Source of the DNA: Escherichia phage BEU42
Length of the DNA stretch: 64,000 nucleotides
Strand: one strand, 5' to 3'
Sequence record: OM632669.1
Under the pieces are notes generated by a model that did not search any database, was not told the DNA's origin, and was given only the letters and a program-made list of their open reading frames with translations. Below are positions 47,888 to 49,565 of this stretch, piece after piece (the first letter of the stretch is position 1; the number at the start of each line of letters is the position of its first letter). A program made the translations under genes and the position numbers.

Positions 47888-48391
47888 CTATTCAAACAGT
47901 TTACGGTCAGAACGAATCTGGTTCCCCAGTTCAATCAGTTGGTTATCACGGAGTCTAACAGTTGCCCTGAGTTCTTCAACCAAACGTCTGCCTTCTTCAA
48001 GACTTGAGTCGAGTCTGGCTGCATGGCTTGCAAGATTGAGGCATTGAGTGGTTCCGGTTGAGGCTTGACGTTTATAACTCTCGGCTCGTTTTTCTGACTG
48101 GAGCAACCGACTATTGTACTGGTTAGTAATAGAATCAATAACGACTTCATAAGACTCTTTGGCTTTATCAAGTCGAAGGGTAAGTTGCCCGACTTCATAA
48201 CTGTGTTCCCGATTCTTTTGGTCATAAGCCAGTTTTACTCTATCAAGTTCTTTTGAGTACTCCTTCTTATCTTCATCCCATAGTGCTTGAACTTTCTTTT
48301 CACCATGTTGTGAACCAAGAAGAAAAAGGGTAGCTCCCAGAGCTACCCCTCCCAAAAGACATACAGTTAACTTAATTAACGATGTCTTCAT
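47888..48391 (-). CDS. Rz-like inner-membrane spanin (i-spanin)
   Basis: N-terminal TM segment ([22 protein letters not shown]) followed by a charged coiled-coil periplasmic domain; start at the third in-frame Met of track ORF 47888..48430; directly follows the endolysin gene. Confidence 0.5.
47935..48150 (-). CDS. Rz1-like outer-membrane lipoprotein spanin (o-spanin), embedded in the i-spanin gene
   Basis: Alternate-frame ORF entirely inside the Rz-like gene: lipoprotein signal [16 protein letters not shown] then proline-rich mature part ([20 protein letters not shown]...). Confidence 0.45.
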   Translation of the reverse strand: MKSLLILLLTSTIVGCSSQKNEPRVINVKPQPEPLNASILQAMQPDSTQVLKKADVWLKNSGQLLDSVITN

Positions 48392-48998
48392 TACACCTCT
48401 CCAGAGGGACATTACCAATACGGTTAGCAATCCATCCTGTAGTGTACTCAGGCATATTAAGAGATAAATAGTAGTTTAACTGTTTACCATCCAGAGACTT
48501 CAAAATGAGCTTACAGGCTTCTACTTTGCCTCGTTTATTCTGAAGGCTCTTATATGCACTTAGAGTTCCAGAACCGACTTTACCATCAACTTGTATTTTA
48601 GGGTAGTCTTTGCCATTTCTGGAGAAAGCATTAAGAGATTCTTGTAACCAACGAGATGGTCTTGCAGGTCCAGTATTAACACCAGCATCTACTAGTTTTT
48701 CTGTTACCGCCGGTGATACATCTGCAAACTTAACAAAGCCAGGCTTCAAGATGTAATCGTTGTAATAAATACTTGATGCCATTTCCTGAGTTAAGTTCTT
48801 CATTGAACCATCCCAGTTATACATCGACTCTAGTTCTTGCTTATGCTTTTGAGCAACCTGAATAGTTACACCATGATTAGTTTCACCTCCTGGGTCTTTG
48901 GGGTCATTAACGTATCCACCCTCAACAGCAAATACAGCAGCAATGATTGCTGCAATAACTCCTCCAACACCACCAACTTTCTTCTTACTTATTGCCAC
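48372..48998 (-). CDS. endolysin, GH108-type N-acetylmuramidase with N-terminal SAR-like segment
   Basis: Motif EGGYVNDPKDPGGETNHGVT after a Gly/Ala-rich weakly hydrophobic N-terminus (VGGVGGVIAAIIAAVFAV); GTG start with AGGAGG RBS; 208 aa. Confidence 0.65.
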   Translation of the reverse strand: MAISKKKVGGVGGVIAAIIAAVFAVEGGYVNDPKDPGGETNHGVTIQVAQKHKQELESMYNWDGSMKNLTQEMASSIYYNDYILKPGFVKFADVSPAVTEKLVDAGVNTGPARPSRWLQESLNAFSRNGKDYPKIQVDGKVGSGTLSAYKSLQNKRGKVEACKLILKSLDGKQLNYYLSLNMPEYTTGWIANRIGNVPLERCNEDIVN

Positions 48999-49248
48999 AC
49001 CAATCCTCCTTTGGTTTCAAACGAACCAGTCGGCAAATAATATTCAGCACAAAGAGTGCTATAGCAATGTTATTGCCATGTGGAATATCTTTGAGGATAT
49101 GTTGGGGTAATGCAGAGAAAGAACTGGATAAGGCATCCACACAAGAGAAGAACAATATTGCTAATGTGCTAATCTGAATAGATGCCCATTTCCAACAACG
49201 TTTCCAATTAGGAACCATTTCCACATGTTTGGTTAACTTGCGAACCAT
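48985..49248 (-). CDS. putative holin/pinholin (about 87 aa, two TM helices)
   Basis: Internal start MVRKLTKH of track ORF 48985..49314; two hydrophobic helices; immediately upstream of the SAR-type endolysin. Confidence 0.4.
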   Translation of the reverse strand: MVRKLTKHVEMVPNWKRCWKWASIQISTLAILFFSCVDALSSSFSALPQHILKDIPHGNNIAIALFVLNIICRLVRLKPKEDWCGNK

Positions 49249-49565
49249 GCAAAAATCTCCCGTCTGGCAGCAGCCAGTATACCAATAATGATACCTGCTC
49301 CAGCCCATACCCATTTACCAAACAATCCAGCACCAACAACTTTATGTTTGATGGTAATGAACTCTTCAATAGTAGGGGCAGACTCAGCCAGAGACTTTTC
49401 TACATTCTCCAGTCGAGTGTCCATCTTATTAATAGACAGTTGAAGGTTACGTACAGCATCATCTAAATCTTGCCGAGATTTAGCATCACGGGCATTATTT
49501 TCGAAGAGTGTCTTCATACGTTCCTCCATTCGAGCTAGGAGCACCTCTACGGATTCATGACTCAT
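49233..49565 (-). CDS. membrane-anchored protein (110 aa, C-terminal TM helix)
   Basis: Charged helical N-terminal region and C-terminal hydrophobic segment (GLFGKWVWAGAGIIIGILAAA); first gene of the lysis cluster. Confidence 0.45.
   Translation of the reverse strand: MSHESVEVLLARMEERMKTLFENNARDAKSRQDLDDAVRNLQLSINKMDTRLENVEKSLAESAPTIEEFITIKHKVVGAGLFGKWVWAGAGIIIGILAAARREIFAWFAS

Follow-up and report, generated by a model that had tools for sequence, protein, structure and literature searches.

The lysis systems closest to the one described here are those of phage 21, phage lambda and coliphage N4. In phage 21 (S21/R21/Rz-Rz1), a small-hole holin (pinholin) acts together with a signal-anchor-release (SAR) endolysin that is released upon depolarisation, and with a two-component spanin in which the gene of the outer-membrane subunit (o-spanin) is embedded in that of the inner-membrane subunit (i-spanin). 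In lambda, Rz/Rz1 likewise represents a type II inner-membrane subunit with an outer-membrane lipoprotein encoded inside its gene in the +1 frame. N4 late genes are transcribed leftward by the host sigma-70 RNA polymerase, directed by N4SSB, and the cloned N4 gp60-63 cassette lyses Escherichia coli in approximately 25 min (Awuah et al., bioRxiv 10.1101/2025.11.12.688109). In the current work, a stretch of 64,000 nucleotides from Escherichia phage BEU42 (sequence record OM632669.1; hereafter the window) was analysed with a focus on positions 47888-49565, where the sequence and its list of open reading frames (ORFs) reveal five tightly overlapping lysis genes on the minus strand. With a probability that we estimate at approximately 0.93, this region represents the multigene lysis cassette of an Enquatrovirus N4 strain, encoding the pinholin gp63, the lysis regulator gp62, the SAR endolysin gp61 and the spanins gp60 and gp60a. 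It follows the same logic as the phage 21 system, to which it bears no sequence relationship. The cassette is already known, being annotated in public genomes and experimentally dissected (Kongari et al. 2018; Awuah et al.).

The 2.1-kb region encompassing the cassette is 100% identical at the DNA level to Escherichia phages BEU5, BEU13, BEU14 and BEU44 and 99.5% identical to coliphage N4, while the first 25 kb of the window are N4-like as well. The corresponding N4 locus (NC_008720, 56976-58653) contains the same genes in the same order, with the same overlaps and start codons; the ORFs match N4 gp60-gp63 base for base in the GenBank and RefSeq annotations, and the ORF embedded in gp60 is annotated as an o-spanin in N4 strain AlfredRasser. 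Four of the five proteins (gp63, gp61, gp60 and gp60a) are identical to their N4 counterparts at every residue. The seven nucleotide differences from N4 within the cassette, six of which are silent, leave a lone substitution in gp62, V61A in the numbering of its 109-residue form (SCVDVL to SCVDAL, window position 49133), located in its first transmembrane domain (TMD); the 504-nucleotide gp60/gp60a gene does not contain a single difference. The BEU42 cassette is that of a BEU5-like N4 strain rather than that of the reference isolate. At the V61A site, strain AlfredRasser shares the Val residue of N4. Rapid-lysis alleles were also considered for the BEU42 strain and were ruled out, as gp63 and gp61 are identical to those of wild-type N4.

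An earlier interpretation of the window, made from its letters without database searches (the sequence-only reading), had proposed a compact lysis cassette of four overlapping genes on the late strand. The cassette is borne out by the ORFs at the coordinates given below, by their N4 identity and by the leftward direction of late transcription, and the genes indeed overlap (gp63/gp62 by 16, gp62/gp61 by 14 and gp61/gp60 by 20 nucleotides); their number, however, is five when gp60a is included. In what follows, all features of the cassette and both RNA hairpins are located on the minus strand. Gene anatomy, domain membership, lipobox, reading frame and conservation were observed directly in this analysis, and for SAR behaviour, pinholin assignment and spanin complementation we rely on the literature on identical proteins.

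The first gene, gp63 (49233-49565; 110 amino acids from an ATG start), was delineated from its ORF and from hydrophobicity. Its product, identical to N4 gp63, comprises an acidic, charged, helical N-terminal domain and a single C-terminal, Gly/Ala-rich TMD (approximately residues 81-100), and contains the block PTIEEFITIKHKVVGAG (the 'Receiver' region), which is invariant in eight Schitoviridae. The protein matches PHROG 5211, a family of unknown function; Pfam returned for it weak coiled-coil noise only, and NCBIfam yielded nothing useful for the membrane proteins of the cassette. Its function is derived from the experiments of Awuah et al., in which gp63 complemented an S21 pinholin defect and did not complement a lambda S105 defect, killed cells immediately, and was found to be conditionally essential, being deletable only with suppressors in the SAR domain of gp61; six rapid-lysis alleles adjoin its TMD. 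Because gp63 complements S21 but not S105 and is conditionally essential, it is identified as the pinholin, which replaces the generic designation 'membrane protein' that the sequence-only reading had given to this first gene. Although gp63 can functionally replace S21 of phage 21, it differs from the two-TMD S21 in having a single TMD, which is C-terminal and preceded by a cytoplasmic domain of 80 residues. An alternative start codon of gp63, Met17 (49517), is preceded at a spacing of 5 nucleotides by GGAGGA, a stronger Shine-Dalgarno sequence than that of Met1.

The second gene, gp62 (48985-49248), encodes 87 amino acids from a conserved ATG, or 109 amino acids if translation starts at ATG 49314, and is an extra regulator gene that phage 21 lacks. 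Its product contains two hydrophobic segments, at approximately residues 22-47 and 59-79 of the 87-residue form, and thereby has the two-TMD architecture of the S21 type. Based on this architecture, which corresponds to the class II topology of S21, it may be supposed that gp62 is the real (pin)holin and that gp63 plays an accessory or antiholin-like role as a membrane protein, as the sequence-only reading had implied by calling the second gene 'pinholin-like'. PHROG 1356, RefSeq and several genome records also label gp62 as a 'holin', a label which constitutes an annotation and not a test, and gp62 expression is lethal after triggering with carbonyl cyanide m-chlorophenyl hydrazone (CCCP) and eventually releases endolysins (Awuah et al.). 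The only Pfam match of gp62, however, is DUF7940 (E 6.9e-13), which is not a holin family. Furthermore, in the experiments of Awuah et al. gp62 could be deleted from plasmid and phage with lysis being retained, it complemented neither holin defect within the first 2 h, and its mutants were absent among more than 60 rapid lysers, whereas the specific S21 complementation, the immediate killing, the rapid-lysis alleles and the suppressor-dependent deletion all belong to gp63. The 'pinholin-like' assignment of gp62 was a reasonable one, and in line with the RefSeq/PHROG 'holin' call, but it is contradicted by experiment; gp62 as the pinholin is a very improbable proposition that has largely been refuted already.

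On the basis of the published experiments, gp62 is instead a late-acting, holin-like lysis regulator and not the pinholin: it is dispensable, acts only after approximately 2 h and then releases even the soluble lambda endolysin, and it was designated a lysis regulator by the authors (Awuah et al.). With respect to its translation start, only the short, 87-residue form is common to relatives. The 109-residue form, which carries a 22-residue extension, has a poor Shine-Dalgarno sequence and no counterpart in annotated homologues. Given the alternative start codons, dual-start regulation of gp63 and gp62 may be possible. In Stenotrophomonas phage Philippe, the SAR GH108 endolysin and the embedded spanins are retained, and a single 'holin class II' gene (locus positions 705-1103) replaces gp63 and gp62, which shows that the holin component has been modularly swapped within the Schitoviridae.

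The endolysin gene, gp61 (48372-48998), encodes 208 amino acids from a GTG start codon and is preceded by a perfect AGGAGG Shine-Dalgarno sequence, read directly in the sequence at 49005-49010, 6 nucleotides 5' of the GTG (48998); among the nine phages compared, only N4 uses GTG as the start of this gene. The product is assigned by Pfam profile search to PF05838 (Glyco_hydro_108; 81.2 bits, E 8e-23, gathering cut-off 21.2) and PF09374 (PG_binding_3; 36.7 bits, E 5e-9, gathering cut-off 24.6), and retrieves from the Protein Data Bank the TtsA-type muramidases 6V3Z (E 1.9e-26) and 6V40 (E 1e-22). Glu26, the glutamate of the catalytic motif, is located in EGGYVNDPKDPGGETNHG, within the motif context VEGGYVNDPKDPGGETNHG; it aligns to the EGGYV of 6V3Z and 6V40, and together with the EGGYVN-P-DPGG-TNHG block is invariant in nine Schitoviridae endolysins. 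These Salmonella GH108 muramidases (TtsA, 6V40; Sen1395, 6V3Z) share with gp61 the GH108 plus PG_binding_3 fold family and the catalytic block EGGYV-P-D-GG-T, whereas the endolysin of phage 21 is of the T4-lysozyme type (GH24). For the NCBIfam equivalog 'holin-associated N-acetylmuramidase', gp61 remains below threshold (66.6 bits versus a cut-off of 240), and by this profile it would be a relative, not an equivalog, of that enzyme. Muramidase chemistry, i.e., cleavage of the MurNAc-GlcNAc bond, is attributed to purified N4 gp61 by Stojkovic & Rothman-Denes 2007, as cited by Awuah et al.

The N-terminal segment of gp61, VGGVGGVIAAIIAAVFAV (codons 8-25, 48924-48977), is directly preceded by KKK, and 9 of its 18 residues are Gly or Ala (4 Gly, 5 Ala), while Leu is absent. 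Such a weakly hydrophobic, Gly/Ala-rich N terminus is predicted to act as a SAR domain, of which it carries the typical signature, and its Gly/Ala-rich character is kept in relatives; at the equivalent position, TtsA/Sen1395 have a polar first helix (DEIFAAILSR). In alignments with solved GH108 enzymes, residues 16-25 of gp61 fall on the N-terminal end of these proteins, and the Pfam match begins at gp61 residue 20. Because these residues align within the GH108 domain, the hydrophobic helix would be part of the fold and not a removable leader, and the alignment would favour a retained SAR helix over a cleaved signal peptide. For the identical N4 protein, the following has been reported: gp61 is membrane-associated and synchronously triggered by the pinholin, a large-hole holin and a pinholin each suffice as its partner (complementation in lambda and hy21 lysogens), it leaks slowly when no holin is present, causing gradual lysis with the spanins only, and SAR-domain mutants such as G12E, which maps to VGGVGGVIAAIIAAVFAV, lyse rapidly (Awuah et al., bioRxiv 10.1101/2025.11.12.688109). 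The GH108 N-acetylmuramidase motif, the SAR-type Gly/Ala-rich N terminus and the GTG start with its AGGAGG had all been anticipated by the sequence-only reading, and are supported by the profile score and the invariant E26, by the composition of the segment together with its published behaviour, and by the position of the Shine-Dalgarno sequence, respectively.

Alternatively, the N terminus of gp61 could be an ordinary cleavable Sec signal peptide, in which case an active enzyme would be secreted and the timing of lysis would not depend on SAR release. In favour of this, KKK could serve as the n-region and the hydrophobic stretch as the h-region, with V-F-A | V behind them conforming to the -3/-1 rule, and gp61 alone is able to lyse cells (Awuah et al.). 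The h-region, however, is 50% Gly/Ala and devoid of Leu, and the segment aligns to the start of solved GH108 domains, from Pfam model position 2 onward. Cleavage would therefore cost the enzyme a portion of its fold and make the catalytic Glu its second residue. In addition, G12E, which inserts a charge, speeds up lysis and does not abolish export, and the reported membrane association and synchronous triggering do not agree with a freely secreted enzyme. A cleaved gp61 is thus considered highly improbable, and gp61 is treated below as a SAR endolysin.

The last gene, gp60 (47888-48391; 167 amino acids from an ATG start), encodes a protein with an N-terminal TMD (approximately residues 4-28) followed by a periplasmic domain of approximately 139 residues, 37% of which are charged. 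This is a type II i-spanin, in line with its assignment to PHROG 6197 ('Rz-like spanin', E 5e-68). The +1 frame of gp60 accommodates the whole of gp60a, which encodes the Rz1-like o-spanin and corresponds to 47935-48198 (87 amino acids, ATG 48198) or to 47935-48150 (71 amino acids, ATG 48150). Both candidate starts lead to the same 56-residue mature lipoprotein, as they share the lipobox IVGC (codons I-V-G-C at 48103-48114), the Cys of which is the lipidation site. The start at ATG 48198 is conserved with phage G7C (MKSG), and that at ATG 48150 would provide a canonical 15-residue lipoprotein signal, such as is found in inbricus and HN04. The Rz with a fully embedded Rz1 and the IVGC lipobox that the sequence-only reading had described are both upheld, whereas the 'proline-rich' body it had ascribed to the o-spanin is so only to a modest extent, mature gp60a containing 5 Pro among 56 residues (8.9%), 4 of which are clustered within 13 residues. 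The Pro content of lambda Rz1 is higher than the 9% of gp60a.

The embedded frame was compared with that of eight diverged Schitoviridae relatives, i.e., G7C, Klebsiella phage VLCpiP4a, Pseudomonas phages inbricus and Ebordelon, Achromobacter phage JWAlpha, Erwinia phage Ea9-2, Stenotrophomonas phage Philippe and Burkholderia phage HN04. In all eight, the +1-frame ORF is open and contains a lipobox (TAGC, LLGC, LTAC, LSGC, LAGC, VSGC, ISAC and ISGC being the lipobox-like tetrapeptides found), so that the shift is +1 in nine of nine phages and the Cys is invariant in the nine sequences. The length of the mature o-spanin ranges from 56 to 63 amino acids across these relatives, and the motifs INVKP, QAMQP(D/N)ST and SG(Q/K)LLD-VT are kept from Escherichia phages to those of Achromobacter, Erwinia, Pseudomonas, Stenotrophomonas and Burkholderia. 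In the DNA shared by the two genes, mean identity is approximately 63% in both the gp60 and the gp60a frame, as compared to 34-58% for full-length gp60 versus its homologues (tblastn); within the gene, it is therefore the part read in two frames that is under the strongest constraint. With tblastn, the mature o-spanin matches 154 phage records. When the codon order of gp60 was shuffled, a lipoprotein-like ORF in an alternative frame arose in 4 of 20,000 shuffles (0.02%), and an alternative-frame ORF of at least 71 codons arose in 12%. In Kongari et al. (2018), N4 gp60 and the unannotated ORF inside it already appear as an i-spanin/o-spanin pair of the embedded type, tabulated with the same 56-residue mature sequence and the lipobox TIVG|C. 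A clone that supplies gp60 and gp60a together complements lambda RzRz1 amber mutants (Awuah et al., bioRxiv 10.1101/2025.11.12.688109).

That the ORF inside gp60 is a chance frame which is not translated, the outer membrane being disrupted by gp60 alone or by some other factor, can be practically dismissed: long alternative-frame ORFs are indeed common among the shuffles, the embedded ORF is unannotated in the N4 GenBank and RefSeq records and its Shine-Dalgarno sequences are weak, but lipoprotein-like ORFs are exceedingly rare among the same shuffles, the frame, Cys and three motifs are conserved across subfamilies at the same mean identity as the gp60 frame, the product matches a wide range of phage records, and the gp60-gp60a clone is functional in lambda.

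The spanins of N4 and lambda are functionally interchangeable in the latter, although they are of different families (PHROG 6197, or the 'N4' family in Kongari et al. 2018): neither gp60 nor gp60a matched the Pfam families of lambda Rz/Rz1, even at E values of up to 1, and for gp60 Pfam returned weak coiled-coil noise only. The gp60/gp60a pair functions like Rz/Rz1, yet constitutes a separate sequence family. Unlike in lambda, no periplasmic Cys is present in the mature N4 o-spanin, and the only one of the i-spanin is not conserved; therefore, intermolecular disulfides of the lambda type are not a conserved feature here.

Taken together with the published work on N4, these features suggest the following course of lysis. 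The gp61 endolysin would be exported by Sec and remain anchored in the inner membrane through its Gly/Ala-rich SAR helix, which directly abuts the catalytic Glu26, so that the GH108 muramidase would probably be kept inactive as long as the helix is embedded in the membrane. Meanwhile, gp63 would build up in the inner membrane and, upon triggering, form small holes that collapse the membrane potential. Depolarisation would then free the SAR helix, and gp61, presumably refolding in the periplasm, would degrade the murein. With the murein gone, the complex of gp60 in the inner membrane and the outer-membrane lipoprotein gp60a would be free to disrupt the outer membrane. The dispensable two-TMD modulator gp62, with its slow holin-like activity, may aid the exit from N4 lysis inhibition.

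A number of points weigh against this assignment of the cassette. The topologies of its proteins rest on hydropathy and on published predictions, and the key functional source (Awuah et al.) is a preprint. The positive-inside signals of gp63 are conflicting, as KHK and K84 precede its TMD and RR follows it, an ambiguity that was also noted by Awuah et al. In gp61, a signal-peptidase-I site is formally possible at the end of the hydrophobic segment (V22-F23-A24 | V25), and a single-sequence AlphaFold2 model had a mean predicted local distance difference test (pLDDT) score of 37.8, which is too poor to place the SAR helix. Finally, gp60a has two candidate start codons.

In addition to the genes, the region contains two RNA hairpins. 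The first, a terminator-like hairpin in the spacer between gp64 and gp63 (49583-49604), would mark the upstream boundary of the cassette. It consists of a 9-bp stem (AGAGCCGGG/CCCGGCUUU) with a GAUA loop, followed by a U-run that reaches 49600-49596 and continues to UUUUUC; folding gave -18.8 kcal/mol with a z score of -3.0. This hairpin was overlooked by an automated terminator scan, in which greedy stem extension consumes the U-run, and was confirmed by folding. It is located approximately 20 nucleotides 5' of the gp63 start, a distance too short to accommodate a promoter, and an equivalent GC hairpin with a U-run precedes the gp63 homologue, in the interval between the tail gene and gp63, in all seven diverged Schitoviridae examined. 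From its position, the hairpin might be imagined to throttle read-through into the cassette, setting the dose of pinholin and endolysin and contributing to the unusually long latent period of N4 (lysis inhibition), but we regard such a role as doubtful, and transcriptional throttling of lysis-gene dosage would be unlikely to be important. Were it to operate, the hairpin might be where certain 'noncoding' rapid-lysis mutations, themselves uncharacterised, exert their effect, and a transcriptional layer would be added that is absent from the published N4 lysis model.

The second hairpin (48323-48353) has a 14-bp stem followed by CUUUUUCUUCUU, covers codons of the gp60 TMD (approximately 13-25), and has a folding energy of -19.7 kcal/mol with a z score of -2.5. 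Its sequence is not conserved in relatives, although these repeatedly have GC hairpins at the corresponding Gly/Ala codons; it could act as an internal attenuator or simply result from codon composition. In the N4-like record AL25, a 'terminator' is annotated under the gp60 match. Neither hairpin is mentioned in the N4 lysis preprint (bioRxiv 10.1101/2025.11.12.688109).

The cassette is closely flanked on both sides, the portal gene starting 8 nucleotides past the end of gp60 and the gp64-gp63 spacer spanning 103 nucleotides (49566-49668). With respect to N4, the final 1.68 kb of the portal gene (46200-47879) contain 25 nucleotide differences and gp64 (49669-50922) approximately 30. The low divergence of gp60/gp60a relative to these flanks is consistent with either a dual-coding constraint or a recently exchanged segment.

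The general interest of N4 lysis, in which a single-TMD pinholin and lysis inhibition differ from the phage 21 and T4 paradigms, has been set out by others. The practical value of the current comparison is as an annotation check for N4-like records, in many of which, RefSeq N4 among them, the embedded o-spanin is missing, gp62 is called a 'holin' and gp63 is unnamed or misnamed. Several genomes carry the label 'tape measure protein' or 'tail length tape-measure protein' on their gp63 homologues, and one N4-like record gives the i-spanin region as 'virion RNA polymerase'.

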